Shown: piece after piece, positions 10,649 to 41,603 of the stretch
How positions within the stretch are numbered: position 1 is the stretch's first letter
Layout: each line of letters begins with the position of its first letter
Source: a virus
Taxonomy: Duplodnaviria; Caudoviricetes
IMG/VR virus record: IMGVR_UViG_3300029288_000072
Location: 32,001-96,000 of that record
DNA: 64,000 bases
Strand: one strand, 5' to 3'
Made by a program: the position numbers and the translations under genes
Notes under the pieces: model-generated
The model's input: only the letters and a program-made list of their open reading frames with translations
Told to the model about the DNA's origin: nothing
Databases searched by the model: none

Positions 10649-10651
10649 TAT

Positions 10652-10930
10652 ATGAATAATATTATTTCTGATATTCTTAATGAAGTTGATAATGCAACTA
10701 AAAAATTTAATAATTGGCCGACAGATCCTCTTCATGCTCTTTCTATTATTGGTGAAGAATATGGAGAATTAAATAAAGCTGTTTTACAAAACGTTTACGA
10801 ACCACACAAAACTTCAATAAATGAAATAAAAATTGAAGCCATACAAACAGCAGCAATGATTATTAGATTTTTAGCTAGTTTAGATACATACAAATTTTCT
10901 AAAAGTGAACAGCATATACAGGAAACGTGA
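10652..10930 (+). CDS. MazG-like NTP pyrophosphohydrolase
   Basis: IIGEEYGELNKAVL...EAIQTAAM all-alpha MazG pattern. Confidence 0.7.
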   Translation: MNNIISDILNEVDNATKKFNNWPTDPLHALSIIGEEYGELNKAVLQNVYEPHKTSINEIKIEAIQTAAMIIRFLASLDTYKFSKSEQHIQET

Positions 10931-25619: not shown

Positions 25620-25693
25620 AATTAATAAAATATTTGAAAGTTATATTTTTAATGATATAATCATATTTAATAACCACTCATTAAAGGAAATAA

Positions 25694-26236
25694 ATGCCTA
25701 AGAATACATTAATAGTGAATCTTTTTGCTGGACCTGGAGCAGGAAAATCAACGGTTGCAGCAGGAGTGTTTGAAGGATTAAAAGAACAAAACATAGATTG
25801 TGAATTAATCACTGAATATGCAAAACAAGCTACATGGGAAGAAAATAAACTTGCGTTAAAAGATCAGTTTTATACTTCTGCGAATCAATATCATAGAGAA
25901 TTTATCGTTTATGGTAAAGTTGATGTTATCGTAACAGATTCTCCTATTTTAATAGGACTTATGTATTTTTCAGATCCAAATGAACGTAAGTTTTTTGCAT
26001 TAAGAAAATATCTATTAGAATGCTTTACTGAACGAAAGAATTTAAATATATTTCTTGACAGAGTAAAGACATATAATCCAAATGGAAGAAACCAAACAGA
26101 ACAAGAATCTTCTCAAATAGATTTAAAAATAAATACGTTTTTAAATGAAAATAAAATACCATATATTAATGTTCCTGGAAATCAAATTGGAAAAACCAAA
26201 ATTCTTGAAGAAATTTTAAAATCAATTAAAGGTTAA
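25694..26236 (+). CDS. P-loop ATPase/kinase (NadR-like AAA_28)
   Basis: AGPGAGKST, VTDSP, YNPNGRNQTEQE. Confidence 0.8.
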   Translation: MPKNTLIVNLFAGPGAGKSTVAAGVFEGLKEQNIDCELITEYAKQATWEENKLALKDQFYTSANQYHREFIVYGKVDVIVTDSPILIGLMYFSDPNERKFFALRKYLLECFTERKNLNIFLDRVKTYNPNGRNQTEQESSQIDLKINTFLNENKIPYINVPGNQIGKTKILEEILKSIKG

Positions 26237-26239
26237 TAT

Positions 26240-26458
26240 ATGCAATTTAAACCATGGATCGAAATGATGTGTAATATCGCATTTTTATTATTTTTGGTTA
26301 TTGCCATAACATATTTAAATATTTGGATGTTTGTATTTGGTATAATATTATTAGTCATATTATTTGTAATAATTTCGTTTTTCACGACACGAAATAATCC
26401 TATAGAAATAAAAGACAATGATCCAGAATTAGTATGGCAAAGGAATCAGAAAAAATGA
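26240..26458 (+). CDS. small membrane protein
   Basis: Two hydrophobic helices. Confidence 0.6.
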   Translation: MQFKPWIEMMCNIAFLLFLVIAITYLNIWMFVFGIILLVILFVIISFFTTRNNPIEIKDNDPELVWQRNQKK

Positions 26459-26964
26459 GTTGGGATTATCGTATAGCTAGACAAATATGTGATAAAGGAA
26501 AAAAGTATGAGAGTTTTTCATATTTTATTGTAGAAGCATATTATGACGAAAATAATAAAGTTTTTATGATTTCTGATCAAGCACAATCTCCATATGGAGA
26601 AAATATTTGTGAATTAATGGAAAATTGGGTTATGTTTGCTGATGCGTTCAATAAACCAATTTTAGATTATGATAATATTCCAGAACCAGGAGCAAAAAAT
26701 ATAATTGAGAACGAATTAAATGATTTAAAAGATGATTTAAAAAATAACGCAATTGAATACTTAGAAAAAGAAGGAAAAATATCAAGATTTTTAATAGAAG
26801 ATTTAATTACAGAAGAAGAGTATGAACAATATAAAAAAGATGAGGATGACAAAAGAAAAGAATCTGAAATGAAATATTATGTTGACAATGTAGGAACAAA
26901 TATAATAGATGTAATTAAGAAAATTATTGTTAAATATTTTACACCAAAAAAGGAAAACAAATGA
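26434..26964 (+). CDS. hypothetical protein (WxYR N-terminal motif)
   Basis: MSWDYRI...IVEAYYDE...DAFNKPIL. Confidence 0.65.
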   Translation: MAKESEKMSWDYRIARQICDKGKKYESFSYFIVEAYYDENNKVFMISDQAQSPYGENICELMENWVMFADAFNKPILDYDNIPEPGAKNIIENELNDLKDDLKNNAIEYLEKEGKISRFLIEDLITEEEYEQYKKDEDDKRKESEMKYYVDNVGTNIIDVIKKIIVKYFTPKKENK

Positions 26965-27755
26965 TACACCCAACATTGGGAGATAGAATGAAACGTTATG
27001 AAGAAGTTTTTAATACTTCTTTAATGCGTAGAACACCAGTCATTATTAGATTGGACGGAAAAGCATTTCATACATATACAAGAGATAGAAAGAAACCAGT
27101 AGATGAAAATTTATCTTTGGCTATGCAATTTGCAACTCAATATCTTGTTAAAAATATTCAGGGGTGTAAATTTGGGTACACACAATCAGATGAAATTAGT
27201 TTATTATTGACTGATTATGATACATTAGAAACTGATGCATGGTTCGATAATACTATTCAGAAAATAGTTAGTATATCCGCATCATATTGTACATTGATTT
27301 TTAATAGACAATTACATTCACTAGATATGTTGAAAGCATCATATGATCCCAAAATACAAATAAAACCACCTAAAGATGCATATTTTGATTCTAGAGCATT
27401 TAATCTTCCTAGAGAAGAAGTATGTAATTATTTTATTTGGAGACAACAAGATTGTAGAAAAAATGCTATATCTATGGCAGCACAAGCAAATTTCTCTCAT
27501 AAACAGTTGCATAAAATGAAGTCTGGTGATAAAATCGCAATGTTATCAACAGTAGGAATTGATTTTGAAACAGTATATCCGAAATCATTTCGGTATGGAG
27601 CAGTATATCATCGTAAACTAGATGATTATGGTATGCATGTTCGATTTCATACTGATTGTGATATTGAAATACCAGACTTTAAAGAAGATAGAGAATATAT
27701 TAACCGATTTGTTTATTCAGAAAGTGAAACAGATGCAAAACAAGAGAATATTTGA
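26961..27755 (+). CDS. thg1: tRNA(His) guanylyltransferase Thg1-like protein
   Basis: RMKRYE, IIRLDGKAFH, YTQSDEIS, FDSRAF, YFIWRQQD..KNAI. Confidence 0.95.
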   Translation: MIHPTLGDRMKRYEEVFNTSLMRRTPVIIRLDGKAFHTYTRDRKKPVDENLSLAMQFATQYLVKNIQGCKFGYTQSDEISLLLTDYDTLETDAWFDNTIQKIVSISASYCTLIFNRQLHSLDMLKASYDPKIQIKPPKDAYFDSRAFNLPREEVCNYFIWRQQDCRKNAISMAAQANFSHKQLHKMKSGDKIAMLSTVGIDFETVYPKSFRYGAVYHRKLDDYGMHVRFHTDCDIEIPDFKEDREYINRFVYSESETDAKQENI

Positions 27756-27916
27756 AATAGATTACTATTATCTATTACAATTTAATAATCTTAAAACATT
27801 GCTTGTTGAATCTGAAAGCAGAACCCAGGCAGAAGATTATTGTAGAAAATTGGAATATCCAAATAAAATAAACATAAAACATATCAAATACCATTGGGCA
27901 AAATAGAAAGGAAAAC

Positions 27917-28025
27917 ATGTTTAAATACATCAAGTTACTCAAAAAAGAATTTTTATCTTCAAGAAATAGAAATAAGATATTATCTTATGATTTTAATCAA
28001 ACACAAGAAGAAATTGACAATTCAT
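27917..28025 (+). pseudogene. 5' fragment of Pth2-like gene interrupted by TnpB element
   Basis: AAAGGA RBS; 36 codons ending at the TTCAT TAM; joins 29338 in frame. Confidence 0.75.
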
Positions 28026-28164
28026 CTGTTCTGTGGCAAGGAAACCCACTACCTTTAGGTGGTGGGAGGAATTACCACATCCTCCTTTCTTAATAGTGTA
28101 TCACTCAACATTATACAACATATTGTATAATATAAAAATAGTTTGTCAAATCTTATTTTCCGGA

Positions 28165-28172
28165 TATAAATA
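28165..28172 (+). promoter_or_regulatory. T4-type late promoter TATAAATA for tnpB
   Basis: 30 nt upstream of ATG28203. Confidence 0.55.
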
Positions 28173-28202
28173 ACTATGTATTGAAGAAATAATGAGGCTA
28201 TA

Positions 28203-29300
28203 ATGAAACTAGCAACGAGAGTAAAACTACTAGCAAACAAAAGTGAGAAAGAACAACTCACTCAAGTTATGATTGCTACTAATAGAGCCTCTAATTGGGT
28301 TGCTGAAGTTGCATTTAATAATAAAACTTTTGGTCAAGTTCAACTTCACAAACTCGTATATTACGAAATTAAGCAAAGGTTTAATCTTTCTTCTCAACTT
28401 GCTGTAAGATCAATAGGTAGAGTCGTAGATGTATATAAAAATAAAAAACAAAGAAGTAAAGTTATAAAATTTGATGAAATGAGTGCAATTGATTATGATA
28501 CTCGCAATCTTTCAATTAAAAAAGATAGTGAAATTTCCATAACAACTCTTGGAAAAAGAATTAAGTTACAATATAGAAGTCGTAAGCCATTGGAAACTTA
28601 TGAATTATGCACCCAAAGTGAATTGAGTTATGATAAAGCAAAGGGGAAGTTTTATGTTAACTTCTTCCGCATTGAAAACGAAAAAGCAAATGATGAAGTA
28701 AAAGATTTCCTCGGTGTAGATTTAGGTATAGTGAATCTTGCTACTTGTAGTGATGGTGAAGTGGTAAGTGGTGAACGAGTAGAAAGTTATAGAAAGAAAA
28801 TAACTTTACATAAAAGTAATTTACAAAGTAAAGGTAGTAGAAGTGCAAAGCGTAGATTAAAGAAAATAAGTAAAAAAGAAGCAAGATTCAAGAAAGATAC
28901 GAACCATTGTATAAGTAAGCGTTTAGTTCAAAAAGCAAAGACACTTGGAGTTGGAATCAAATTAGAAGATCTAAACTTCAAGAAACAAGTTCCGCAAAAA
29001 GGTTGGACTAAAGAATGGAAAGATAATAATGCAAGAAAGGGTAAGTGGGCATTTGGTCAATTAAGAAAATTTATTGACTACAAGGCTAAACTTATCGGTG
29101 TTCCAGTGTTATATATTAATCCTGCTTATACGAGTCAAATGTGTAGCAAGTGTGGTCATACTCACGAAGAAAATAGATTAACTCAAAGTGAGTTTAAATG
29201 TATTTCTTGTGGATATAGTGAAAATGCTGATTACAATGCTGCTATTAATATTTCAAGGGCTGAAATCAACCAGCCTATTGTAGCGACTCGCAAGAGTTAG
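28203..29300 (+). CDS. tnpB: RNA-guided endonuclease TnpB
   Basis: Intact RuvC D/E/D and Zn finger; paralog of 8344-9441. Confidence 0.95.
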   Translation: MKLATRVKLLANKSEKEQLTQVMIATNRASNWVAEVAFNNKTFGQVQLHKLVYYEIKQRFNLSSQLAVRSIGRVVDVYKNKKQRSKVIKFDEMSAIDYDTRNLSIKKDSEISITTLGKRIKLQYRSRKPLETYELCTQSELSYDKAKGKFYVNFFRIENEKANDEVKDFLGVDLGIVNLATCSDGEVVSGERVESYRKKITLHKSNLQSKGSRSAKRRLKKISKKEARFKKDTNHCISKRLVQKAKTLGVGIKLEDLNFKKQVPQKGWTKEWKDNNARKGKWAFGQLRKFIDYKAKLIGVPVLYINPAYTSQMCSKCGHTHEENRLTQSEFKCISCGYSENADYNAAINISRAEINQPIVATRKS

Positions 29301-29357
29301 TTACAAACCCACTACCTTTAGGTGGTGGGTAGTTGATTTAGAATGTATGTATTAGTT
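29230..29357 (+). ncRNA. putative omegaRNA 3' scaffold plus guide (5' end unknown)
   Basis: tnpB 3' end and RE nearly identical between the two copies; GACTC-GCAA-GAGTT and RE hairpins; guide would start TTAGAATGTATG at 29338. Confidence 0.55.
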
Positions 29358-29660
29358 AGACGAGATATCTTGCCTTTAGTACATTGTGCTGTACAAGCCA
29401 GTCATTCTGTCGCCGAATTCGTATTCTATCACTATAATGATAATACAAAATTGTGGTTGACTCTTGAAAAAACAATGATAATATTGGAAGCATCGCAAGA
29501 GCAAATAGAGGAAAAAATGAAGTGGTTCGCAGATAGACATATGAATTATCAGCCATTTTGGGAACCAGATATGTCTAATGCTATGACTGCAGTTGCATTC
29601 CAACCGATTAAAACCTCATTTGCAAAAGAAATATTTTCTGATTTAAAACTTTTAAGTTAA
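29343..29660 (+). CDS. peptidyl-tRNA hydrolase 2 (Pth2)-like protein, 3' part of split gene
   Basis: YVLVRRD...VQASHSVAE...WEPD...TAVA. Confidence 0.7.
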   Translation: MYVLVRRDILPLVHCAVQASHSVAEFVFYHYNDNTKLWLTLEKTMIILEASQEQIEEKMKWFADRHMNYQPFWEPDMSNAMTAVAFQPIKTSFAKEIFSDLKLLS

Positions 29661-29670
29661 AGGAATAATA

Positions 29671-30117
29671 ATGTCAACATTTCCAGATATGATTCAAATC
29701 GAATTAACGAAGTCATCTGCTGAACAATTAGCAGCAATAGTTAATAATGGTAAATATCCTGTTAAATATATGCACCATGTAACATTAGCATTTAGACCGA
29801 ACCAAACTCAATATAAACAAATTGTAATGTTAGATCCAACCAATCCATTACAATCCGGCGAAAAAGTTAAAATAGATCTTTTAACATATATTTATGATGA
29901 TGATTTTGGTGTTGATGCAGTAACAGTTCAAATGCGTAGATTAAACGGTGATGATATTATTTCTTTAAATAAATATCCTCATATAACAATATCTACAATA
30001 GCAGATAAAAAACCAAAAGATAGTAATGAATTATTAGAAAAAACAAATCATAATAAATTTGAGGATATTCCATTAACGCTTGATGGTATTGTTAAATTTA
30101 TTACATATAAATCTTAA
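29671..30117 (+). CDS. 2H cyclic phosphodiesterase-like protein
   Basis: HHVTLAF and PHITIS...KPKDSNELL. Confidence 0.75.
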   Translation: MSTFPDMIQIELTKSSAEQLAAIVNNGKYPVKYMHHVTLAFRPNQTQYKQIVMLDPTNPLQSGEKVKIDLLTYIYDDDFGVDAVTVQMRRLNGDDIISLNKYPHITISTIADKKPKDSNELLEKTNHNKFEDIPLTLDGIVKFITYKS

Positions 30118-30134
30118 AAATAAGGATATACGTT

Positions 30135-32084
30135 ATGATAGATAAAAAAGAAATTGAAACTCTTGCAAAAGAGTTAGAAAATGCAGATTACTTATATTAT
30201 AATTTTGGAACGTCTGAATATACAGACGAAGAATATGATGCGATGGAAGATCGTTTATTTAAACTCGACCCAAAAAATAAAAGATTTAAAGATGGTAAAA
30301 GAAATATTGTTGGTGCTAAAACAGATAAAAATGATCGTTGGGAAAAAGTTAAACACAATTATAAAATGGGCAGTCAATTAAAAATAACAACGTTTGACGG
30401 ATTAAAAAAATGGGCAAATGATCTTGGACAAACAGAAAGATATGTTGTACAAGATAAATTGGATGGTATTTCTATTAGATTAGAATATAAAGATGGAGAA
30501 TTAATTGAAGCAGTAACTCGCGGCGATGGTCATTTAGGAGAAAATATTTTACGAAATGTTCTTAAAATGGAAGGAATTCCTTCTATTATTAAATGTGAAG
30601 AACCATTAAGTGTTCGTGGAGAAATATTATTATTTAAGAGTAATTTTCATCATTTTGAAGATGGCAAAACATTAAGAAATGTTGCAGCAGGAACATCAAA
30701 AAGATTGGATGGTAAAGGATGTGATTGGTTAAATGTAAAAGTATATGATGTTCAAAACTGGAAAGATTTTGGATTCAATAAAGTAAGTTCATCATTGGAA
30801 TTTCTACAAGAACAAGGATTTGATGTTGTAAATTATAAAGTAGTAAAAACTCTAGATGATGTTCAGAATGTATTTGATAAATATGTAAAATCAATTAGAG
30901 ATTCCCTAGATTGGGACATTGATGGTCTTGTAATAAAGGCTGGTTTATTTGAAGATGATGATTGGGCTGCACCTAAAAGATCTATTGCATACAAATTCCC
31001 CGCAAAAACAGCAGTTACAAAATTGTTAGATGTTGTTTGGCAAGATTCTGGTGGAAGAATATCACCAGTTGCTATTCTTGATCCTGCTGTTATTGATGGT
31101 GTTACTATTTCGCGTGCAACATTAAATAACGTAGATCATATCAAGAAATTAAATATCAAAATCGGAGATACAGTAGAAATAAGTAGAAGGAACGATGTTA
31201 TTCCATGTATTGAAAAAGTATTAATTTCCGATAAAACAGGAAAAGATATAAGTCCACCAACACATGACGAAGACGGGTTTCCAATTGTTCATGAAACAAA
31301 TGCTGATGGAGAAAAATTGGTATATCTAATATCTACAAATCCTAATAGTAAGTCTAAAATCGTCAGAAGTATTGTTAAATGGTTTACTGCCCATGATGCT
31401 AAAGGAATTGCCGAAGCAACTGCAGAAGCATTATTCGATGCAAATATTATAAAAGATTTGCCTTCATTTTATGATGTTTGTATGAACGGGCATGATGATC
31501 TAATGAGTTTAGACGGATTTGGTTCTGGTACTTATAAAATAATGAAAAAAGCAGCATTAACAACGTGTAAAACAACATTAGTTAAATTTTTAACTGCAAT
31601 GGATCTAAATAATATAGGATCAAAAATTATAGAATCTATATTATCATTCAATAATAAAAAGATTGATTTAGACTCATTTATAGATTATGTAAAAGATATT
31701 AATACTATCTCAAATATTCCCGGTATTGGTATTAACACTGCAAAACAAATAAATAATGAAATTAAAAAGAAATTGTCTTTAATTAGTGCAATGAAAACAA
31801 GAGTTCAAATTGACACTTGGGAGCCTGTAAAGGCTTCTAGCACAAAAGTTAATGGTCTATCATTCTGTTTTACTGGTAAAATGGATTCTGATAGGAATAC
31901 TCTTGAAAATATAGTAAAAGAAAATAGTGGGATTGTTGCTGGTGTAAGTAAAACTCTAAATTATCTAGTAACAAATGATCCTAATTCCGGATCATCTAAA
32001 AATCAAAAGGTAGATAAGATAAACTCTGCTGGAGGGAATATAAAACGTATAACCGAAAAAGAATTTTTCGAATTGATTAAGTAG
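30135..32084 (+). CDS. ligA: NAD-dependent DNA ligase
   Basis: DEEYD, KLDG, TRGDG, VRGE, DGLVIK, AYKFP, OB fold, C-terminal BRCT (FCFTG...GSSKNQK). Confidence 0.95.
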   Translation: MIDKKEIETLAKELENADYLYYNFGTSEYTDEEYDAMEDRLFKLDPKNKRFKDGKRNIVGAKTDKNDRWEKVKHNYKMGSQLKITTFDGLKKWANDLGQTERYVVQDKLDGISIRLEYKDGELIEAVTRGDGHLGENILRNVLKMEGIPSIIKCEEPLSVRGEILLFKSNFHHFEDGKTLRNVAAGTSKRLDGKGCDWLNVKVYDVQNWKDFGFNKVSSSLEFLQEQGFDVVNYKVVKTLDDVQNVFDKYVKSIRDSLDWDIDGLVIKAGLFEDDDWAAPKRSIAYKFPAKTAVTKLLDVVWQDSGGRISPVAILDPAVIDGVTISRATLNNVDHIKKLNIKIGDTVEISRRNDVIPCIEKVLISDKTGKDISPPTHDEDGFPIVHETNADGEKLVYLISTNPNSKSKIVRSIVKWFTAHDAKGIAEATAEALFDANIIKDLPSFYDVCMNGHDDLMSLDGFGSGTYKIMKKAALTTCKTTLVKFLTAMDLNNIGSKIIESILSFNNKKIDLDSFIDYVKDINTISNIPGIGINTAKQINNEIKKKLSLISAMKTRVQIDTWEPVKASSTKVNGLSFCFTGKMDSDRNTLENIVKENSGIVAGVSKTLNYLVTNDPNSGSSKNQKVDKINSAGGNIKRITEKEFFELIK

Positions 32085-32098
32085 GAATAAATACTATT

Positions 32099-32365
32099 AT
32101 GCGGAAACAAAAGAATAAACCAAAACGTTTTAAAACCTATTTGGAATATTTAGAATCGTGTCCAGGAAAGAAAGAATATTATACGCATTTTTCCAACCAA
32201 AAAGAAGCAGATGAATTTGGTGAGGGATTACGTCAAAATCTTTGTAAAGAACTTGAATGTGGATATTACGAACTAGACACATTTGTTGAGGTCAGAATTT
32301 CTCAATTAGCAGTAAGATGTTATTTTGTGAAATATTCTAAAGAGGAATCTCTTAGTTTAGTTTAA
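32099..32365 (+). CDS. hypothetical protein
   Basis: ORF track. Confidence 0.6.
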   Translation: MRKQKNKPKRFKTYLEYLESCPGKKEYYTHFSNQKEADEFGEGLRQNLCKELECGYYELDTFVEVRISQLAVRCYFVKYSKEESLSLV

Positions 32366-33587
32366 TAGATACTAGATAATCTGCAATTTCGTCATATAAT
32401 TTTGCTGAATCTGGGCTATATATTATAGCATTAGATTCTACTACCCATCCAGCACTAGGATTATCAATATCACTTTCCATTGTAACTAAATGAGGAAATC
32501 CTATTATTATTTTTGTTCCATTATCATTTGTATCAAAAAACAATGATAAATCATTTTTTAAAGCTAGATCCATAGAAATTTTTAAACCCATTCCAAAATT
32601 ACTATTATTTTCTTTTGTTGTAAAACATGTATTAAATAATTTATGTTTGTTTTCTGAGGAGATTCCAGGACCATTATCTTCTATTACTAAATAAAATGGA
32701 CTTGCATAACGTTTTTTACCAAATGGACCATAAACATGCGGTTTTAAACTTATTGCTGTATTCTTTTTATATGTTTTAATACATCTCAATTTTAATGATG
32801 GTTTATAATTTTGTTTTGTTTTATTTAACATATCATATGAATTATATATTGCATCGCCTGCATTTTTAAATACATTTATTAAAATTCGTGATAAGTCATT
32901 TGTATTCATTGGAACATGAATACCATCAAAATCTGGTGAGCATGCATATGAAATAGAAGAAAATACTTTCATTGTTCTTGAAAATGATGGTGCGGTGGAA
33001 ATAATTTTATTTAAATATGGTTGTAATTCTATTATTTTTAATTCTTCTGCATTTTTAGATGATACATATCTTCCATATTCTGTTAGATTATGTATACAAG
33101 ATTCAATTATTTTTACTTGTTCATCAATTGTTTTTATTCTATCTTTAATATTTTTTATCATTAAAATATTTTCAGTATTATTTGAAATTAAATTAAATAT
33201 TAATTTTAAATCATTTAATTGTGCAAGAGAACAAGAATTTATAACTGCTAATGGGGATCTGATTTCATGACTTATAGTAAAAATATGTTCATCATACATG
33301 TTTTCAAGGGATCTTTTGTATTTTAATGATAATTGTTCAAAATCAAGATTTTTTTCTCGTACACAATTCATTTTAAATTTTCGTTTTTGATTATTTGTAA
33401 ATAATGACATTACTAAAGAAAATATTAAGAAATATAACAATATTGATGCGACTTTCAGATATAATGGAAAAATAAATATCATGTTTATTATAACAAATAG
33501 ACATGATACAAATATTATAATACTGGAAAATATTTTAATATTTTTAAAATATTTTTTTATATGGTCATAACATGTCAAATGGGTCAT
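32352..33587 (-). CDS. sensor histidine kinase (2 adjacent TMs, HisKA + HATPase)
   Basis: SHEIRSPL H-box, INVFKNAGDAI, EDNGPGI, FTTK, GMGL. Confidence 0.92.
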   Translation of the reverse strand: MTHLTCYDHIKKYFKNIKIFSSIIIFVSCLFVIINMIFIFPLYLKVASILLYFLIFSLVMSLFTNNQKRKFKMNCVREKNLDFEQLSLKYKRSLENMYDEHIFTISHEIRSPLAVINSCSLAQLNDLKLIFNLISNNTENILMIKNIKDRIKTIDEQVKIIESCIHNLTEYGRYVSSKNAEELKIIELQPYLNKIISTAPSFSRTMKVFSSISYACSPDFDGIHVPMNTNDLSRILINVFKNAGDAIYNSYDMLNKTKQNYKPSLKLRCIKTYKKNTAISLKPHVYGPFGKKRYASPFYLVIEDNGPGISSENKHKLFNTCFTTKENNSNFGMGLKISMDLALKNDLSLFFDTNDNGTKIIIGFPHLVTMESDIDNPSAGWVVESNAIIYSPDSAKLYDEIADYLVSIKLN

Positions 33588-34047
33588 TTTCTATTATTTG
33601 TTTTTCTAATAAAAATTTATTTTCTAATACGGATTCTAACCATGATATAACTCTTACTATATTTGGTTTAGGAATTACTATTGCATCTCCTTTTGATTCT
33701 GATGCTAGTGCTTCTGCTTTTTGACGAGCGGCATAACTTTTTTCGACACCAGTATAAATGCATAATTGTGGTCTTAATGAAGCATTAAAATCTACTATAA
33801 ATTTATAAAGATCAATTCCTGTATGACCATTAAATACCAAATCGAATATACAAATATCAGGAATAAATCCACCTTTAACAAATGTACTACCATGTTCATA
33901 TGCATGTTCTGTAAATGCTTTATTTATGGTAATATTATTTTGTGATATTCCGTATTTAGCAAATGTATTTAAGATATTTTGTTCTATTGTTAAACAAAGA
34001 TCCCCATTATCATCTGCAATTAATACTCCGATTTTTTTGTCTGACAT
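33565..34047 (-). CDS. stand-alone response regulator receiver (CheY-like)
   Basis: LIADDN, ICIFDL (phospho-Asp), IYTG, IPKP; no output domain. Confidence 0.85.
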   Translation of the reverse strand: MSDKKIGVLIADDNGDLCLTIEQNILNTFAKYGISQNNITINKAFTEHAYEHGSTFVKGGFIPDICIFDLVFNGHTGIDLYKFIVDFNASLRPQLCIYTGVEKSYAARQKAEALASESKGDAIVIPKPNIVRVISWLESVLENKFLLEKQIIENDPFDML

Positions 34048-34056
34048 TTGTTCCCC

Positions 34057-34605
34057 TTAGAAGAATATTTTAAAAATAGCCTTGATACATGTTGCGATAG
34101 GTGCCCAGCCAAAAATTGATGCAAATAACATTAAAAAGAACAATGTAAATATAAAAAATTTAGATGCTGGAGGGGTGAATAATAATTTTATTAATGCACC
34201 CCGTTTACCACCAACAGATGTTGCATATTTTTCTACCTTTCGTATAAAAGTTTTTTCATTTAATCCTCTTTCTATTATTAATTCATTTAATGTTTGACTA
34301 AAATTTTCTTTAGTAGTTTTCAATTCATTTATATTTGTTGAATACATTTCGTATAGTTGAGCATATTCTTTTTCTAATTCTTTTACTTTATTTTCCGCAT
34401 TTACTTTATTTTCCGATAAATCATTATATCTTTTTTCTATTTCTTCAAATGCAATTTTTTGATGTTCTAAAATAGCCTGTAAATTCTTTATTTTTTTATT
34501 TCTGACACTAATAGCATCAATAGCATAAACATTATTACCTAACATATCTTTAGATGCTTGTAACATGTCCATATTAGCATTAGATTTTAACTTAGAATCT
34601 GTCAT
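34057..34605 (-). CDS. coiled-coil protein with C-terminal membrane anchor
   Basis: Heptad-rich middle; FFIFTLFFLMLFASIFGW TM; AGAGG RBS before ATG34605; TATAAATA at 34626-34633. Confidence 0.8.
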   Translation of the reverse strand: MTDSKLKSNANMDMLQASKDMLGNNVYAIDAISVRNKKIKNLQAILEHQKIAFEEIEKRYNDLSENKVNAENKVKELEKEYAQLYEMYSTNINELKTTKENFSQTLNELIIERGLNEKTFIRKVEKYATSVGGKRGALIKLLFTPPASKFFIFTLFFLMLFASIFGWAPIATCIKAIFKIFF

Positions 34606-34689
34606 GTAAAACCTCTTTATAACACTATTTATATTAATCATGCTTGACTTTTGTTTCTTAGTAGGTATAATTACTAATTAGGAGAATTT

Positions 34690-35454
34690 ATGCGATTTAG
34701 TCATTCAAAACTTGAAATAGCACGCAAATGCATGAAGCAATTTCACTACAAATATATATTAAAATATCCAGTATTAGATACAGAACCAACCGAGTTTGGA
34801 AACTTAATTCATGAAATAGCACAAAATTATAAAGGTTCTGGAAAAAAGGAATTGATGTGCTTATATGAAAAATATAGACCTAAATATAAATTTGAGTCTA
34901 AAACATATAAAAATAAAATTAAACTTGCATTAAAAAATATACATGACTTCTGGCAAATAAATTTAAAAAATCAAAAATACGAACCAGAACAGGAAGTAAC
35001 AGAAAGTTTAACCGAATCTATATCATTAAATGGAAAAATAGATGTAATCATATTTAATGATAATAAAGTCAGAATTATAGATTATAAAACAAGTAAGACA
35101 GACAAGTATTCAGATCATACAAACCAATTGGCAATGTATAAAATACTTGTAAATAAAAAATACAATATACCATATGAAAATATGAGTTGTGAAATTGTGT
35201 ATCTTTCTATGGATGAAGTAGATAAATCCGGAAAACATATATTAAATGAAGGATATAATAATATTGTTAGGGAATATGATGTTGATGAATCTGATATTGA
35301 TGTATTAATAGAAGAAATTGAATCAGTTAAACATAGAATAGAAAGAGCAGAAAAAAATAATATTTGGAGAGCAAATCCTACGTGGTTTAATTGTACATAT
35401 TGTTCATTTAATGAACATTGTGATGAAAAATATAAAGATAAAAAAGACTCTTGA
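34690..35454 (+). CDS. Cas4-like/RecB PD-(D/E)XK exonuclease
   Basis: FGNLIH, GKIDVI...IIDYKT, QLAMY, C..CSF..HC. Confidence 0.88.
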   Translation: MRFSHSKLEIARKCMKQFHYKYILKYPVLDTEPTEFGNLIHEIAQNYKGSGKKELMCLYEKYRPKYKFESKTYKNKIKLALKNIHDFWQINLKNQKYEPEQEVTESLTESISLNGKIDVIIFNDNKVRIIDYKTSKTDKYSDHTNQLAMYKILVNKKYNIPYENMSCEIVYLSMDEVDKSGKHILNEGYNNIVREYDVDESDIDVLIEEIESVKHRIERAEKNNIWRANPTWFNCTYCSFNEHCDEKYKDKKDS

Positions 35455-35507
35455 CTTTTAAATATTCCCATATATAATTCGTAAACATTTTAGAAAAAAG
35501 GATTTAT

Positions 35508-36110
35508 ATGCGTACTATACTTCTTGATGCAACTTATGAACCTCTTGGAATAATTTCCTGGAAAAATGCCTGGAAAAAAGTCTTAGACATTAAAGATCCA
35601 AATGGAAAATCTCTATTTGATCCAAAAGCTAATGTTTTGTGGTCATATCCAGAAAAAAAGATTAGATCCGAACATAATTGTTGGGATTGGCCAGCTATAA
35701 TCATTTTAAATAAGCCTTCTCGTAGAAAAAGAAATCATAAAATGATTAATCCGAGTAAACGATCAATTCTTGTTCGTGACATGTATACATGCCAATATTG
35801 TGGGAAAAAATTGTCTAATACCTCTGGTACTAGAGACCACGTTTTTCCTGAATCTAGAGGCGGAAAAACTACCTGGGATAACATGGTTGCTGCATGTAAA
35901 ACTTGTCAGCATAAAAAAGGAAACAAAACCTGCGACGAAGTTAATATGTATCCACTACGTATGCCACAAGAACCAAACCTTATAGAAAGATTTAGAAACT
36001 CTATTAGGATCGCAAGCGCAGTAGAACGTAGAACATGGATCACTGGTCTTAAAAAACTAGGTTTGGATTATATTCTAAACGAAGAAATTAAAGAAGAGGT
36101 ATTGTCATGA
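35508..36110 (+). CDS. HNH endonuclease (McrA-like)
   Basis: RD.YTCQYCG...TRDHVFPESRGG...WDNMVAACKTCQHKKG. Confidence 0.9.
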   Translation: MRTILLDATYEPLGIISWKNAWKKVLDIKDPNGKSLFDPKANVLWSYPEKKIRSEHNCWDWPAIIILNKPSRRKRNHKMINPSKRSILVRDMYTCQYCGKKLSNTSGTRDHVFPESRGGKTTWDNMVAACKTCQHKKGNKTCDEVNMYPLRMPQEPNLIERFRNSIRIASAVERRTWITGLKKLGLDYILNEEIKEEVLS

Positions 36111-36871
36111 AAGCATTATTTGCTACTCTTGTTGGAAGTAAATTATACGGTATTTCAACCGAAACAAGCGATACAGATATCAAAGGTATCGCATTAGGAG
36201 AAATATCTCAATTAATTGGACTAGAAAACTTCGAACAGCAAGAGTTTAAAAATGATGTAGAAGACGGACCTTCTAAAATAGAAGGCGTATTATATGCAGT
36301 TGATAAATATTTAAACCTATGTTTTAAAGGAAACCCAACCGTAATTGAAATAGCATTTGCTGATCCAAAATATCATTTATACTCAACTCCAATCGGAGAA
36401 GAGGTTTGTGACTTTGTTCGTAAACATATGTTAACAAAACATTTGTTTAAGCCATATTCTGCCTATCATATGGCCCAAATGCGTAAACTCCAATCACAAG
36501 AAAGAGTTGGAAAACGACAAAAAATTGTTGAAGAACATAATTTTGATCCAAAGTTCGCAGGACATTCGTATCGTCTTGCTAGACAATGTGTTATAGTGAT
36601 GAGAGAAGGAGTTTTGCGTCCAACATTAGATCCAGAAGACAGGGAAATTTGTCTTAAAATAAGACAAGGTAAAAAGTATTTTACCAAAGAATCTGTTTTA
36701 GAATTATTAAAATCTGTCGATACTGAAATGTACGATGCATATAAAACATCTACATTAAAGGAATCTCCTGATTTTAAACTTATTAACAATTTTGTAATAG
36801 ACATACATTTAAGATATATTAAAGGTGAGTTTGATAATCAATTTAAGGTTCCATTTGTTTTCCCAACCTGA
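36107..36871 (+). CDS. Pol-beta-superfamily nucleotidyltransferase (RlaP/YcgL-like)
   Basis: GSKLYG...SDTDIKG, KGNPTVIE, DPKFAGH.YRL. Confidence 0.85.
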   Translation: MKALFATLVGSKLYGISTETSDTDIKGIALGEISQLIGLENFEQQEFKNDVEDGPSKIEGVLYAVDKYLNLCFKGNPTVIEIAFADPKYHLYSTPIGEEVCDFVRKHMLTKHLFKPYSAYHMAQMRKLQSQERVGKRQKIVEEHNFDPKFAGHSYRLARQCVIVMREGVLRPTLDPEDREICLKIRQGKKYFTKESVLELLKSVDTEMYDAYKTSTLKESPDFKLINNFVIDIHLRYIKGEFDNQFKVPFVFPT

Positions 36872-37130
36872 TTTAACAGTTTACGAATTATATATTAAAA
36901 CCTCTCTTCAATCAATTTTTGAAGAGGGGATTTCTGTTAATAAAATGGAATTAAAATTACTAATTATTAATAAAAATTTAATATTATTAAAGACACATTA
37001 TGGCAATAAATATACAAATGATATTATATGTAAACATAATTTGGAAGATATAGGAATAAAGAAATATATTGACTCTTAAAGTTTTCTGATATAATGTCGT
37101 TCTTGATTATTATTTTTAGAAGGAAGAATT

Positions 37131-37787
37131 ATGACAAAGCAACCGATTAAACGACCAAGAGGAAGACCACGAAAATATCCATTAGGAAAACCGCATAAAA
37201 GAAAATATACAAAACGAAAAATAAATAAACAATATATAACACCAGATGAAAATCTGACTAATTTAGAATTGTGGAAACTAGGAAAAAATCAAAAATTTAA
37301 AATTGGTGATGTTGTAGAAAGAAGTACAAATATAGGCGTAATTTATGATATTGGTGATAATTATAAAGAGTATAAAATAAAATGGCATATTGGAAATAAA
37401 TGGGATTATATAGAAGGTTCTGGCGATGAAGATCAACTAAAATTATCTAAAAAGCCAAATCCATTAGTAGTAAATTCATGGGATAGATATCCTGGTCCAT
37501 CATCAAATATGATAAAAAATATAGAAGAAAAACGTAGGAAACAAATTTTAGAACAAGAAAAAAATAAATCTGCAAAAGATGTTGATAAGTTAGTTGAAAG
37601 TATTGAAGAAAGTCATAAAAAATTAAAATATTTAGTGGAAGAAGAAATAGAAGAAGTTGTAGAAGATAAAGCAGAAGATATAGATTGTGTAGTAGATCCT
37701 ACCATAGAAGATGATATTGAAATAATAAATGACCTATCAGTTGAAGAAATGTATAGAAAGATTAAAGAAGAATTGGAGGAAATATAA
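37131..37787 (+). CDS. AT-hook-containing protein with acidic tail
   Basis: KRPRGRPRK at N-terminus; promoter 37069-37095. Confidence 0.7.
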   Translation: MTKQPIKRPRGRPRKYPLGKPHKRKYTKRKINKQYITPDENLTNLELWKLGKNQKFKIGDVVERSTNIGVIYDIGDNYKEYKIKWHIGNKWDYIEGSGDEDQLKLSKKPNPLVVNSWDRYPGPSSNMIKNIEEKRRKQILEQEKNKSAKDVDKLVESIEESHKKLKYLVEEEIEEVVEDKAEDIDCVVDPTIEDDIEIINDLSVEEMYRKIKEELEEI

Positions 37788-38419
37788 TGTTCTTAACAAT
37801 ATTAATCTGTATATTTGTTTGTTATGGAATAACAAATATAATAGTAAATGGAACAATATTTGAAGACATAAAAAAATATTTAATAACAAAATCATCACTA
37901 TTAAAAGATTCATTAACATTTAAATGGGAAGAACAAGGTTGTCCATCGGAAAAATATTTTTTAAACTCCAAAAAAGCAAAAAATATAATTAAAAAATTAG
38001 AAGATATTAAAAAGTCAATAATGTTAGAAACCGATTCACAAAAGGAAAATTCTTTTAATGCTCTATTTCAAATTCATAGAGAATCTTTAGTATTATTATT
38101 TAATAGCGAAGAAAATCTAAAACGTCATATCTCCTTTATTTATAATAAGTTATATAAATTGTCAACATGTATGATGTGTTCTGGGTTTTGGGTTGGATTA
38201 TTTTTAGTAATTTTAACTAGTATAATAAATATAAATCTATTTGGAATGACAATTATATTAATTGGAAATTGTGGTGTAATCTCTTGGTGTATATCAGCAT
38301 TTTTATTATCATGTTTATTTAGTGGAACATCATGGTTTTTAGGTGTACTTTCAACATATTTTGGTAATGGGGAGACGCCCTCTGCTGTAATACATAATTA
38401 TGACCATCAGGATTTATAA
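37787..38419 (+). CDS. membrane protein with CxxC-x-GFW motif (DUF1360-like)
   Basis: LSTCMMCSGFWVG; several TMs. Confidence 0.65.
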   Translation: MFLTILICIFVCYGITNIIVNGTIFEDIKKYLITKSSLLKDSLTFKWEEQGCPSEKYFLNSKKAKNIIKKLEDIKKSIMLETDSQKENSFNALFQIHRESLVLLFNSEENLKRHISFIYNKLYKLSTCMMCSGFWVGLFLVILTSIININLFGMTIILIGNCGVISWCISAFLLSCLFSGTSWFLGVLSTYFGNGETPSAVIHNYDHQDL

Positions 38420-39534
38420 TGGCTATTAGTTTTAACAATACATCTAAAGGAACTAATACTCAATTAAGTGAGTGTCTGAAGGATTTATTGTTTGCTTCTG
38501 GAGGGTCTGGTAAATTAGTAGAAATAATAAATAGCATAAATACAGCAGATTTAGAAGGGTTAGGGTTATCTAATATTACCAGAGGAACAGATTTTATTGC
38601 ATCAAATTTACAAAAATTTCAGGATGGTTTACCATTAAGCGATGTATTACCATCAAGCCAATTGCGTCCACCAATCAATATTACAAAAACTGCAACCGAT
38701 ATCGTAGCAGATCTACAAAATAGATGTACAGATTTTTTTCTTGCTGCATTAGATAGAATAAGTCCGATAGATAGACTTGAGCAATTATTAGATTTAGTAA
38801 ATGATTTGTGTGGACAATTGAATTTTTCATCTTTAAGAAAAGTAATTGATAAAATAGAACAAACTCAACGTGATATTATAAGAGAATCTTTAGACAAATT
38901 GACAACTCCATTACAAAAAGCAGCGCAATTAAATGATATGTTAGTTGATGCTATTAATAGTGGTTCACAAGATGCAATTAACAGAATAAATGATGCTATA
39001 GATGAATTAAAATATAACCAACTTTATGATTATGTTAATTCATTAGATCCATTAGAAGCAATAGGAAGATTACAAGCAGAAATAAAAAAACGTACACAGT
39101 TAGGTAACATTCAAGGTATTCAAGAATTGATGGGTGCAATAAATTCTATAGAAGCAACTATAAAATCATCATTAGATAATATAACATCTCCTATACAAGA
39201 TATATTTGATACTCCAGAAAATATTTTAAATGCTGCACAAAATAAAATAGATGATGCATTAAATCTTGGTAATTATGAGGAGATACAAAATATTATTACT
39301 GCATTCGATAATGTTCAAAATGAAGTTCTTTCTACATTACAAAATTTAGATCCTAAAACAATGTTACAAAAAGGATTAACATTATTAAATGATGCATTAA
39401 AAGAAGCAAATATTGCAAAATATAATACTATATTAGATGAAATGGCTAGAAAACTGTGTTCTGAATCACAATTAGGTACTATTCCAGAATTGCCCAACAT
39501 TCCAAATATTCAATTACCATGGATATTAACTTGA
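38419..39534 (+). CDS. alpha-helical hypothetical protein
   Basis: 371 aa, L/D/Q/N-rich helical. Confidence 0.7.
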   Translation: MAISFNNTSKGTNTQLSECLKDLLFASGGSGKLVEIINSINTADLEGLGLSNITRGTDFIASNLQKFQDGLPLSDVLPSSQLRPPINITKTATDIVADLQNRCTDFFLAALDRISPIDRLEQLLDLVNDLCGQLNFSSLRKVIDKIEQTQRDIIRESLDKLTTPLQKAAQLNDMLVDAINSGSQDAINRINDAIDELKYNQLYDYVNSLDPLEAIGRLQAEIKKRTQLGNIQGIQELMGAINSIEATIKSSLDNITSPIQDIFDTPENILNAAQNKIDDALNLGNYEEIQNIITAFDNVQNEVLSTLQNLDPKTMLQKGLTLLNDALKEANIAKYNTILDEMARKLCSESQLGTIPELPNIPNIQLPWILT

Positions 39535-39935
39535 TAATACAACATGATGTTTATACATTACGACTTAAACGGTATATTCAAACCGTTTTAAGAAAAGCTA
39601 TTAAAAATAATAATCCATATAAAAAATATATAAAACAATTAATTAAATTAGATATTGTTTTGAAAATGAATTCTAGATTAGCAGAAACTTGGGCATATTG
39701 TACATATGAAGAAAATAAAAGAAAATTTAATGGATTCGAAGTTAACTTTAATTTAGAACTATTTTATGGAATTTCTTCTACTAAATTTAGAAGAGAAATA
39801 ATAACACATGAATTGGCACATTGTATTGATGTGTTAATACGTGGGGATTCATTCCATGATACTGAATGGAGAAATATTCATATTTCATTGGGTGGAACAG
39901 GGGGAACATTTGCCGACCGAAAAGATTTTTCTTGA
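39519..39935 (+). CDS. SprT-like zinc metalloprotease
   Basis: HELAH...H...W. Confidence 0.8.
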   Translation: MDINLIIQHDVYTLRLKRYIQTVLRKAIKNNNPYKKYIKQLIKLDIVLKMNSRLAETWAYCTYEENKRKFNGFEVNFNLELFYGISSTKFRREIITHELAHCIDVLIRGDSFHDTEWRNIHISLGGTGGTFADRKDFS

Positions 39936-39965
39936 TTTTTATAATACCTTGATATAATTTCACAT

Positions 39966-40736
39966 ATGAAAATACTTTTAATTGGCGATGTACATGGAAG
40001 ATTTCAAAGATTTGGTAATCATATTTTGAATACCATTAATAGAGGTATTGAATTTGATGCTATAATTCAATGTGGAGATTTTGGAATATATACTGGAGCA
40101 AAAGAAGAATTAAGAAAATTAATGTTTAAAATAAAATTAAATAAATTAATTTATTTTATAGATGGCAATCACGAAGATCATTATACATTATACTTAGTTA
40201 AAAATAAATTAGATAAAATGGGTGTAATTTATCAACAACGAGGAACTATTTTAAAATTAAAAGATGGAACAAAAGTAGGATTTATGGGTGGAGCGTTCAA
40301 TGTAGATCGTCCTCAACAAAACTATTTAAATGGTACTTATAATTTTCCTCATAAATCACAAATAGAAAATTTTTCTAATCTTCTTAAAAAAGAAGGTGGT
40401 GTAGATTTAATGATTACTCATTCATGTCCTTCCAATATTGGTATAGGAATAAAAGGACATCAAGAATTTTTTGAAAGTGGACAAGTATTTATAGGAAAAT
40501 TGGGATTTCCTGTTTCTCCTGTACATGATATAGGCGATTCGTTTTTAACGGATTTGTGGAATCAAATAGAAGGATTTAGACCTAAACATTGGGTATTTGC
40601 TCATGTACATAAACATCATCTATCAAAAGTAGACAATACTGAATTTTGTTCTGTTGGTTGTTGTGATGGAACTGATGAATTACCACAACCAAAAATTTAT
40701 ATATACGATACAGAAACTAAAGAAATATTAATTTAA
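39966..40736 (+). CDS. metallophosphoesterase
   Basis: GDVHG, CGDFG, DGNHED, ITHSCP, FAHVH. Confidence 0.9.
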   Translation: MKILLIGDVHGRFQRFGNHILNTINRGIEFDAIIQCGDFGIYTGAKEELRKLMFKIKLNKLIYFIDGNHEDHYTLYLVKNKLDKMGVIYQQRGTILKLKDGTKVGFMGGAFNVDRPQQNYLNGTYNFPHKSQIENFSNLLKKEGGVDLMITHSCPSNIGIGIKGHQEFFESGQVFIGKLGFPVSPVHDIGDSFLTDLWNQIEGFRPKHWVFAHVHKHHLSKVDNTEFCSVGCCDGTDELPQPKIYIYDTETKEILI

Positions 40737-40752
40737 AAAGGTATAATAGTTT

Positions 40753-41097
40753 ATGAAAAAAATAATAAAACAATATTCCACCGATATATTATGGGCGTTA
40801 TTAGTAACTCTTTTTGAATTATCATGTTTAACAGTATGTTTATTCTTAATTGTTAATTATATTCCGCATGAAATATCTTGGTTGCCAACATCATTTTTAT
40901 CATGGTTTGTTCTGTTGGCAATTTATAGAGTTATAACATATAAATTATCAAATAATAATATTTCACAACCAGATATTCCATCTGGATATAATTCTACTCC
41001 ATATAAGGATAGTACAGATCAACCAATACCTGTTAGAAATGTAATACCAATAGAAGAAGCAGATGAACTTGACAGAGAACATTCCGTCAGAGAATGA
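40753..41097 (+). CDS. membrane protein
   Basis: Two TM segments. Confidence 0.65.
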   Translation: MKKIIKQYSTDILWALLVTLFELSCLTVCLFLIVNYIPHEISWLPTSFLSWFVLLAIYRVITYKLSNNNISQPDIPSGYNSTPYKDSTDQPIPVRNVIPIEEADELDREHSVRE

Positions 41098-41521
41098 ATT
41101 CCCTTGGCAATTAAACCAAGGAGAATTAGATGCTAGAACTGGACCTTCAATAGAAGAAGGGCCAGAATTAAAAAACTCTCCCCAATGGTTTAGGTATAAT
41201 AACCAGATGGGAGGAGAAACGGAACAAGAAAAATCTGAAAAACAAATATGTATACAAAAACAACTTGATATGGGTATATTACGCAAAAAAGTTGCACCAA
41301 ATATACAATCTCCAATAGAAGAAGATGTGAAAAAGAAATTTGTTAATTTTACAAATTTATTAAAACAAGATCCTAAATCATTAATACCAGACGTTAAAGA
41401 TACTTTTAAACCGATGGTTGTTGATAAAAATGGAAACAAAAGAAAATTGGGTCCGAATGACAAATGTCCATGTGGATCAGGTAAAAAGTTTAAAAAATGT
41501 CATGGGATAGGGAAGTTTTAA
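41063..41521 (+). CDS. SEC-C motif protein
   Basis: GPNDKCPCGSGKKFKKCHG. Confidence 0.85.
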   Translation: MNLTENIPSENEFPWQLNQGELDARTGPSIEEGPELKNSPQWFRYNNQMGGETEQEKSEKQICIQKQLDMGILRKKVAPNIQSPIEEDVKKKFVNFTNLLKQDPKSLIPDVKDTFKPMVVDKNGNKRKLGPNDKCPCGSGKKFKKCHGIGKF

Positions 41522-41603
41522 TATAAGTTCTTTGTCTAAAAAGACTTAAAAAGTGCTTGACATTTAAAATATATATATTATAATGTGCGCAAGGAGATAA
41601 ATT

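Follow-up and report, generated by a model that had tools for sequence, protein, structure and literature searches.

A Putative Virus-Owned Two-Component Module with a Stand-Alone Receiver and a Membrane Coiled-Coil Partner in an Uncultured T4-Like Phage Clade

Introduction

Two-component systems are the main sensing device of bacteria. Among them, LiaFSR and BceRS-AB are intramembrane-sensing kinase systems of Firmicutes cell-envelope stress, in which the signal is delivered by an accessory membrane protein in contact with the kinase. Virus-encoded receivers and kinases as such are already known. In phages, CDS-30 of the Alteromonas phage V22 is listed as a CheY-like auxiliary gene without further study (PMC7289586), and the divergent cRec receivers of jumbo phages are linked to NAD+/ADP-ribose and RNA-repair genes and are stated never to accompany kinases (Iyer et al. 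2021, PMC7824862). A complete dedicated two-component system is unexpected in a lytic phage. Here, we describe a candidate for such a system in a 64,000-nucleotide stretch of viral DNA (the window), which comprises bases 32001-96000 of the 198,442-bp IMG/VR record IMGVR_UViG_3300029288_000072. Three open reading frames (ORFs), A, B, and C, lie on the minus strand of the window within 32352-34633, and the flanking genes at 25110-32365 and 34690-42194 are on the plus strand. An earlier note on this DNA had described a three-gene minus-strand unit among plus-strand genes at this place, and the ORF calls and the sequence bear out its coordinates and motifs. We lean towards the view that the three genes form a lineage-specific two-component module owned by a clade of uncultured large AT-rich T4-like myoviruses and working by the mechanism proposed in the Discussion. 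The genes are as follows (coordinates are those of the window unless another contig or the whole record is named):

34057-34605, minus strand: gene A, predicted 182-amino-acid (aa) tail-anchored membrane protein with a long cytoplasmic coiled coil; the longest ORF, 34057-34641, has 194 aa from the first ATG
33565-34047, minus strand: gene B, predicted 160-aa stand-alone CheY-like receiver with D12/D13, D69 (codon 33841-33843), T99, and K127-P128
32352-33587, minus strand: gene C, predicted 411-aa HisKA-type histidine kinase; phospho-histidine H107 (codon 33267-33269)

Results

The Encoded Proteins

Gene B starts 9 nucleotides (nt) past the stop of gene A, with a GGGGA Shine-Dalgarno sequence in front, and gene C starts inside the 3' end of gene B with an overlap of 23 nt. 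As all three are kept in the related loci described below, we regard them as real genes and not chance ORFs.

The Pfam Response_reg model gave the single receiver sequence only 12.3 bits (threshold 30.2; E 0.2), and no PHROG family matched it. Its 61 relatives (150-181 aa, 43-79% identical) form a tight family. D12, D13, D69, K127, and P128 are invariant among 40 relatives, and T99 is present in 36 of the 40, the exceptions including two loci that have no kinase. The AlphaFold model of the receiver (predicted local distance difference test (pLDDT) 88.5; predicted template modelling score (pTM) 0.84) has five strand-helix units in the canonical (beta-alpha)5 order and no output domain, only an extended helix 5 of ~35 residues and a low-confidence tail. 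A Foldseek search with this model returned 178 PDB matches at E <= 0.001. Those listed were receivers only, and AdeR, CheY, DctD, Spo0F, and RssB were matched with a probability of 1.0 and a target-normalised TM-score of up to 0.79. By the model and its matches, the product of gene B folds as a CheY-like receiver domain, one that is very divergent in sequence.

The family has invariants of its own, namely FTxHAYxHG (residues 45-53), FNGxTG (72-77), cysteines 18, 66, and 96, W136, and the C-terminal DPFDLL. The patch formed by 45-53 and 72-77 and the three cysteines fall outside the predicted contact with protein A and might serve to bind a second partner or a metal. The tail is encoded here:

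33568-33585, minus strand: C-terminal tail of the receiver, DPFDML here and DPFDLL in the family consensus; disordered when B is modelled alone, with a predicted position on protein A in the complex

In L010, the most divergent relative, the tail is DDLFMTL in place of DPFDLL. A sliding-clamp-binding tail of the type found in T4 gp55, gp33, and gp43 was considered for DPFDLL and rejected: the virus's own gp55 ends in DDDLIFGA, no other ORF has a DPFDLL-like end, and the complex model described below seats the tail on protein A.

The kinase matched Pfam HATPase_c at 30.2 bits (cut-off 26.4) and, by its catalytic domain only, phrog_857 and phrog_10912 ('kinase'). With the curated HisKA model, no HisKA family was reached at E <= 0.01 by the single kinase sequence. 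The kinase has 19 relatives of 354-427 aa with 35-51% identity. A profile of the family aligned (E 2e-12) with two parts of Thermotoga HK853, its catalytic domain and its dimerization and histidine phosphotransfer (DHp) helix, where H107 falls on the H box. BceS was also among the PDB profile matches, by its catalytic domain. An alignment of 14 members showed that H107 in the H box (THE[LI]RSPL), N238/N242/D245 of the N box, D304/G306/G308 of the G1 box (D304-N-G-P-G308), F318 of the F box, and G332-x-G334 of the G2 box are invariant, and F322 is nearly so. The domains are placed as follows:

32493-32915, minus strand: catalytic HATPase_c domain of the kinase with the N, G1, F, and G2 boxes (Pfam, alignment, HK853 profile)
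33387-33533, minus strand: two predicted transmembrane helices of the kinase (residues ~19-67) with a loop of ~5 residues; poorly conserved and missing in one relative

The N-terminal ~65 residues of the kinase thus consist of two hydrophobic helices, and the H box lies ~40 residues past the second. This input region fits two transmembrane helices with a linker of less than ~25 residues and no other sensor domain, as in LiaS and BceS. Positive charges flank both sides of the helix pair and argue for an N-in/C-in topology, while the long start is supported by the N-terminus MTHLTCYD, which is common to P0002. Among the 14 members, the transmembrane region has no sequence conservation. The kinase of L010 (an 84,103-bp IMG/VR contig; kinase at 6488-7639) has no transmembrane helices, and its N-terminus carries four cysteines in the pattern C-x10-C-x2-C-x7-C, possibly a metal or redox input.

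Protein A was modelled as a helix at 9-22, one 94-residue helix at 25-118, two short helices, a transmembrane helix at 147-165, and a terminal helix at 167-181. Two parts of it stand out in the alignment of 14 orthologs:

34063-34167, minus strand: predicted transmembrane helix (residues 147-165) and C-terminal amphipathic helix (167-181) of protein A; invariant S163, G166, W167
34402-34521, minus strand: residues 29-68 of protein A, its sole conserved cytoplasmic stretch and predicted receiver-binding stripe

The cytoplasmic invariants are R35, N36, I39, L42, H48, and E55, whereas the middle of the coiled coil varies freely, in length as well. Read as heptads, the sequence would put I39 and L42 in the core, the polar N36 at or near it, and R35, H48, and E55 on the outside, with H48 and E55 on the same face and one heptad apart. 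Searches of Pfam and the PHROGs with protein A found no family above threshold, only sub-threshold coiled-coil matches, and a search of the ESM Atlas and a profile search of PDB sequences found only coiled-coil noise. Its comparison with the kinase DHp by hhalign gave a probability of 0.2%.

The composition that the earlier note had read from the sequence holds for all three proteins: a coiled coil with a C-terminal transmembrane helix and an amphipathic tail (model and ortholog alignment), a receiver with the conserved residues and no output domain (alignment of 40 relatives, AlphaFold, Foldseek), and a kinase with the full H, N, G1, F, and G2 boxes and two transmembrane helices with a minimal loop (Pfam, 14-member alignment, topology).

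Predicted Contact between A and B

The structure prediction of the receiver with the coiled-coil protein, which had been suggested together with that reading, was run with two copies of A(1-146) and one copy of B, each with its own alignment. B was placed on A with an interaction prediction score from aligned errors (ipSAE) of 0.77, against 0.01 for the best of 3 controls. In the benchmark for that mark, 58 of 80 complexes of solved structure attain it, as do 2 of 110 mismatched pairs, counts that are only a rough guide here because of the author-supplied alignments and the 2+1 stoichiometry. Three runs shared at least 92% of the contacts, and the pLDDT of the partner was at least 84. The model supports binding, although it does not show it, and B probably binds A.

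The predicted interface on A extends over residues 11-68 as a stripe of positions 37, 40/41, 44/45, 48, 51/52, 55/56, 59, and 63, and covers the surface-exposed invariants R35, N36, H48, and E55. On B, it consists of helix 1 (14-30), the beta4-alpha4 loop (100-105), the beta5-alpha5 loop with helix 5 (126-134), and the tail (151-160), so that it takes in E102, K127, P128, and the family-specific tail. Conservation agrees with the model from outside: the conserved cytoplasmic stretch of A coincides with the predicted footprint, and the tail typical of the receiver family falls within the interface. In the listed contacts, H48 of A meets residues 17-24 and 130 of the receiver. D12, D13, and D69 are not named there, and the model therefore gives no support for H48 as a phosphotransfer site. 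From the contact register, E55 and R59 of A would be nearer the rim of the active site.

A Probable Late Promoter

Upstream of gene A, the following signals were found:

34626-34633, minus strand: late promoter box of the T4 type, TATAAATA, with a gap of 20 nt to ATG34605
34612-34617, minus strand: Shine-Dalgarno sequence AAGAGG of gene A, 6 nt before ATG34605 (read from the sequence)

The octamer TATAAATA is avoided in the genome. Both strands of the whole record (G000, 198,442 bp) contain 43 copies, against a median of 109 for 56 permutations of the same letters, which is a depletion of ~2.5-fold relative to octamers of the same composition. Meanwhile, 16 of the 43 copies (37%) lie at most 60 nt upstream of an ORF start, for which the first ATG was taken and ORFs of 80 aa or more were counted. 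For the permutations, the median of this share is 6.6%, and the one that ranks next after TATAAATA has 13.6%. The copy at 34626-34633 is left out of the 37% because the longest ORF of gene A begins upstream of the box. Its gap of 20 nt to ATG34605 is inside the usual 14-37 nt. This 182-aa start is also the choice of a public gene caller (P0082), and the loci L003 and L005 require a later start of this type, since the box lies there inside or hard against the longest ORF; the later starts in both are preceded by a Shine-Dalgarno sequence. Shortly before the gp25 match described below, another copy of TATAAATA stands 16 nt ahead of an ORF start. Copies upstream of ORF starts also include those of tnpB genes (9472 and 28165), a LAGLIDADG gene (24929), and a fibre gene (51621).

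A homolog of gp55, the T4 late sigma factor, is encoded at 180502-181044 of the whole record (G000; E 7e-13; 33% BLASTP identity over 102 residues). In all ten related loci with DNA (L002, L003, L005, L006, L007, L010, L012, L013, and L014, plus L004, a duplicate of L003 that was not separately scanned), the ortholog of gene A has TATAAATA 20-40 nt ahead of its true start. The box is kept there although the A proteins are merely 21-65% identical.

On the opposite strand, a near-consensus sigma70-type promoter (TTGACT-16-TATAAT, 11 of 12 positions) at 34644-34671 (+) faces the PD-(D/E)XK nuclease gene at 34690. One intergenic region of 85 nt thus holds this early/middle promoter back-to-back with the late box.

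As TATAAATA is depleted genome-wide, enriched before ORFs, and conserved before gene A, and as a sigma70-like promoter serves the opposite strand, the trio is plausibly a late unit among early/middle repair genes. The late promoter proposed in the earlier note is thus upheld by the position of the box, its conservation, and the presence of gp55, from which the timing would follow.

Conservation in Related Loci

Thirteen distinct loci were examined, the window included and L003/L004 counted once. The order A-B-C is present in 10 of them, and A-B without a kinase in the other 3:

A-B-C, same slot and orientation: the window, L002 (379.5-kb contig), L003/L004, L005, L006, L007, the P0011 contig, L010 (84-kb IMG/VR contig), L012, L013
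A-B only, same slot: P0074 (365.9-kb contig), P0067 (38-kb contig), L014

The slot is flanked by the PD-(D/E)XK nuclease gene on one side and by one or more small ORFs and an NAD-dependent ligase gene on the other. In the three loci without a kinase, gene B has the small convergent ORF as its neighbour, and in L014 just 58 nt and a hairpin follow gene B. Of the kinase-less loci, L014 is the one whose protein A was read, and it keeps the invariant residues. In the receiver tree, the kinase-less loci fall within a group of 24 rows that also holds kinase-bearing loci; the backbone is weak (89/77, drawn open). This distribution suggests that the kinase was lost once or twice.

In the window, the small ORF at 32099-32365 (+) encodes 88 aa. 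It runs towards the kinase gene and shares 14 nt with the 3' end of the latter. All related loci, the kinase-less ones included, have an ORF of 86-110 aa at this position.

The joint conservation of the trio, which the earlier note had made a condition of its reading, therefore holds for 10 of the 13 loci, all in the same slot, but not for the three with A-B only. Since these three have no kinase and one kinase is soluble, A and B are the core and the kinase is a replaceable input. For the same reason (the kinase-less loci and the soluble, cysteine-rich relative), the sensing of the membrane state by the kinase, which had been put forward as well, has to be dropped as an essential feature.

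Distance from Cellular and Other Viral Proteins

An exhaustive hidden Markov model (HMM) search with the receiver profile among 1.84 billion representatives gave 3 clusters at E <= 1e-30, the next match being at 1.6e-4. A pattern scan of 185,579 prokaryote species, one genome each, found no relative of the receiver. When the same genomes were scanned with the kinase alignment, only generic kinases were obtained (L018-L032). Those that matched at the greatest length have 22-28% identity for most of the alignment and come chiefly from Bacteroidota/Balneolia (Rhodohalobacter, Aquaticitalea, Balneola, Saprospirales, Chitinophagaceae), a weak hint at the host phylum or an ancient source of the gene. 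A cellular kinase was also considered as the donor and rejected; the match inspected proved to be a 1,867-aa multi-domain kinase of unrelated architecture.

Among 50,697 deposited phage genomes, tblastn with the kinase and the receiver found no match. A peptide-pattern scan of IMG/VR with the single kinase sequence likewise found no relatives, whereas the receiver alignment found one there. As no close relatives were found in cells or in cultured phages, a recent capture of a host operon, a possibility raised in the earlier note, is not borne out: the cellular kinases are 22-28% identical, the viral relatives 35-51%, and no cellular relative of the receiver was detected.

The Virus and Its Gene Neighbourhood

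The whole record has ~28% G+C overall and an estimated completeness of 84%. The gp55 homolog is followed by an SbcD/gp47-like Metallophos gene, the order known from T4. The record also encodes a gp25-type baseplate wedge protein (E 3.5e-18) and a collagen-repeat fibre protein. Pfam Gp23 and Terminase_6N had no match in the record, which says little because the record is ~84% complete and divergent and the Gp23 control matched nowhere either. No deposited phage is a close relative, as the ligase next to the trio has no match above 31% identity in any of their genomes. From these features, we read the virus as a large myovirus, uncultured and AT-rich, whose late transcription is of the T4 type.

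The conserved neighbourhood of the trio consists of DNA/RNA repair genes, namely an NAD-dependent ligase, a 2H phosphoesterase, RlaP, and PTH2, to which relatives add NUDIX, NAD synthase, and nicotinate phosphoribosyltransferase (NAPRTase) genes. A search of the genome for a second receiver, histidine phosphotransfer (Hpt) protein, or kinase returned only two further ORFs. One of them, at 8072-8326 (+), encodes 84 aa that match positions 1-54 of the Response_reg model (E 3e-5; IVEDS...FLDHDL) and stops after helix 3, just before a TnpB element (tnpB at 8344-9441, minus strand). It may be a second receiver gene cut by the insertion of this element; no C-terminal half was seen in 9440-10950. The other is a 625-aa ORF with a HATPase_c match at 165157-165576 of the whole record.

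Discussion

The Proposed Mechanism

We propose that genes A, B, and C form a single operon with translational coupling, which would be transcribed late from a TATAAATA promoter of the gp55 type. Kinase C, with nothing but a hairpin of two helices to anchor it in the inner membrane, would autophosphorylate on H107 and pass the phosphoryl group to D69 of B. As a receiver with no output domain, B would work through protein contact, and its partner would be A, a dimeric tail-anchored protein of the inner membrane whose coiled coil may reach ~140 A (an estimate from the 94-residue helix). B may dock on the stripe at ~29-68 of A (R35, H48, E55) with its alpha1/beta5-alpha5 face, the rim of the phosphorylation site, and the DPFDLL tail. 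Since the kinase and A would use the same face of the receiver, docking or phosphorylation by the kinase and binding to A may be mutually exclusive or coupled, and the kinase would thus switch B between two states, one bound to A and tethered to the membrane, the other free. The results above show the genes and their catalytic residues, the fold of B, the conserved synteny and promoter motif, and the distance from cellular families, whereas phosphotransfer, late timing, and the binding of B to A (from the model) are what we infer. The output of the module is most likely a membrane-proximal event in late infection.

Several results weigh against this proposal. Solved receiver-DHp, receiver-Spo0B, and Rap complexes (HK853-RR468, Spo0F-Spo0B/RapH) use the same receiver face as the model, and the high score of the A-B complex may therefore reflect likeness to these structures. 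T99 is replaced by M and A in two of the three kinase-less receivers, so phosphorylation may be non-essential to A-B, although all three keep D12, D13, D69, and K127. The transmembrane helices of the kinase are not conserved and hence provide no evidence of sensing. Finally, the second invariant surface of the receiver (45-53 with its two histidines, and 72-77) lies outside the interface with protein A; it suggests a further partner, through which the real output could pass.

Alternative Explanations

Instead of being the target of B, A might be an auxiliary regulator of the receiver, a DHp-like helical dimer that works either as a phosphatase or sequestering factor (CheZ-, Spo0E-, or Rap-like in logic) or as a Spo0B-like histidine phosphotransferase acting through the invariant H48, while the real output would go through the second conserved surface of B to a host or phage target. 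This is possible, though we find it doubtful. The predicted contact on the alpha1/beta5-alpha5 face and the active-site rim is where kinases, Spo0B, and Rap phosphatases bind, H48 and E55 are invariant, exposed, and one heptad apart along the contact stripe, and the second invariant surface of the receiver fits such an output. However, A and B persist without the kinase, which is odd for a mere phosphatase or relay. The contacts of H48 do not include the receiver aspartates, A has no profile likeness to the kinase DHp or, beyond coiled-coil noise, to solved structures, and no second receiver or Hpt acceptor for the phosphate was found in the genome apart from the truncated ORF at 8072-8326. 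The earlier claim that the receiver acts on a membrane effector thus stands in part: it has the predicted contact with A in its favour, but that contact would fit a relay, a phosphatase, or a sequestering partner equally well.

If A is instead the target of B, as we prefer, the two may form a phosphorylation-switched membrane device that decides the end-game of infection (lysis timing, membrane damage, superinfection), with the kinase reporting the membrane or redox state. We offer this extension tentatively and think it rather unlikely in this full form.

A narrower version, in which the module times lysis or answers superinfection with A as a holin- or antiholin-like protein in a role analogous to T4 lysis inhibition, seems to us a little less likely again. 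The late promoter, the conserved transmembrane helix of A with its small-xxx-small motif (A162/S163...G166-W167) and amphipathic tail, the membrane anchoring of a kinase without an external domain, and the predicted binding of B to A are all consistent with it. Yet no result ties the module to lysis, holins, or superinfection: the PHROGs and Pfam relate A to no holin, antiholin, or spanin, the conserved neighbourhood contains DNA/RNA repair genes and no lysis gene, and one relative's kinase is soluble. The topology of A, a large cytoplasmic coiled coil with a near-terminal transmembrane helix, is also not known from holins.

It is improbable, too, that the kinase and the receiver act mainly on host signalling, by cross-phosphorylation or by draining or feeding host phosphorelays, with A merely localising B. 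The kinase-less receivers do keep their phosphorylation-site residues D12, D13, D69, and K127, so another source of phosphate may exist, and lone CheY-like genes of other phages are listed as auxiliary genes (PMC7289586). The family is, however, very distant from cellular kinases and receivers, which argues against tuned cross-talk with the host, and the invariant and specific interface predicted between A and B points to an internal circuit.

Least of all do we expect B to be a cRec-type enzymatic receiver that processes cyclic phosphates or ADP-ribose with its NAD+/RNA-repair neighbours outside any phosphorelay, for although those neighbours (the ligase, 2H phosphoesterase, RlaP, and PTH2, and the NUDIX, NAD synthase, and NAPRTase genes of relatives) are present and cRec domains retain the receiver aspartates (PMC7824862), cRec is stated never to occur with histidine kinases (PMC7824862) whereas in 10 of 13 loci here the receiver gene has a complete kinase gene adjoining or overlapping it, the neighbours stand on the opposite strand behind a sigma70-like promoter instead of a late one, and neither the PHROG families nor the deposited phage genomes gave a match to B.

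Significance and Comparison with Known Systems

A whole clade of large phages keeps the module under predicted late control, with what would be a new kind of receiver partner. The lineages with a membrane kinase, a soluble kinase, and no kinase amount to a natural experiment. If phosphotransfer and the binding of A to B are true, the module would be a tractable example of a regulated decision that a virus takes in late infection, with a new receiver-target interface whose C-terminal docking peptide sits on the receiver. If the end-game reading is true as well, a virus-owned signalling pathway would steer the virus's own late programme via a previously undescribed receiver partner.

The literature searched, which was incomplete, describes no phage in which a stand-alone receiver, a kinase separate from it, and a membrane coiled coil dedicated to them occur together under a late promoter; within that scope, the earlier note, which knew of no described system of this architecture, is borne out. 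Single features are shared with several known systems. LiaFSR and BceRS-AB likewise have a short kinase whose input is two transmembrane helices with a minimal loop, and a membrane protein in the operon. In contrast to them, the receiver here is a single domain without a DNA-binding domain, and the membrane protein is predicted to bind the receiver and not the kinase. The transmembrane helices of the present kinase are also unconserved and dispensable, and the system is viral and predicted to be late. The conserved transmembrane motif of A has no conserved counterpart in the kinase helices, and the kinase of one relative has no such helices at all.

In the CheA-CheY-CheZ system and in Spo0F with Spo0B or Rap, a stand-alone receiver likewise meets a long helical dimer near its phosphorylation site, an arrangement that is predicted here. 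CheZ tethers CheY by a short terminal peptide, whereas in our model the peptide sits on the receiver instead. Unlike CheZ and Spo0B, protein A is membrane-anchored and unrelated in sequence, and no catalytic residue of the CheZ or Spo0B type can be placed at the receiver aspartate.

Virus-encoded receiver and kinase domains also occur in the hybrid histidine kinases that phaeoviruses (EsV-1, FirrV-1) and giant viruses carry. In BFVD, the structural neighbours of B include these hybrid kinases of both virus groups and a small number of response regulators from phages (CheY-like or with a helix-turn-helix). These known viral examples are hybrid kinases or isolated genes without a described partner, whereas the kinase, the receiver, and the membrane partner are separate here. 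With cRec, the receiver shares a divergent receiver fold, a large phage, and a neighbourhood rich in NAD+/RNA-repair genes, but its gene is coupled to that of a complete kinase, and none of its phospho-acceptor set is missing. The likeness to T4 lysis inhibition (holin T, antiholin RI, RIII) is one of role only and hypothetical, that of a late membrane-associated regulator; there is no homology, the topology is different, and the T4 system has no phosphorylation chemistry. By analogy with these systems, the design may be described as an intramembrane-type kinase with a LiaS/BceS-like input joined to protein-contact signalling of the CheY/Spo0F kind.

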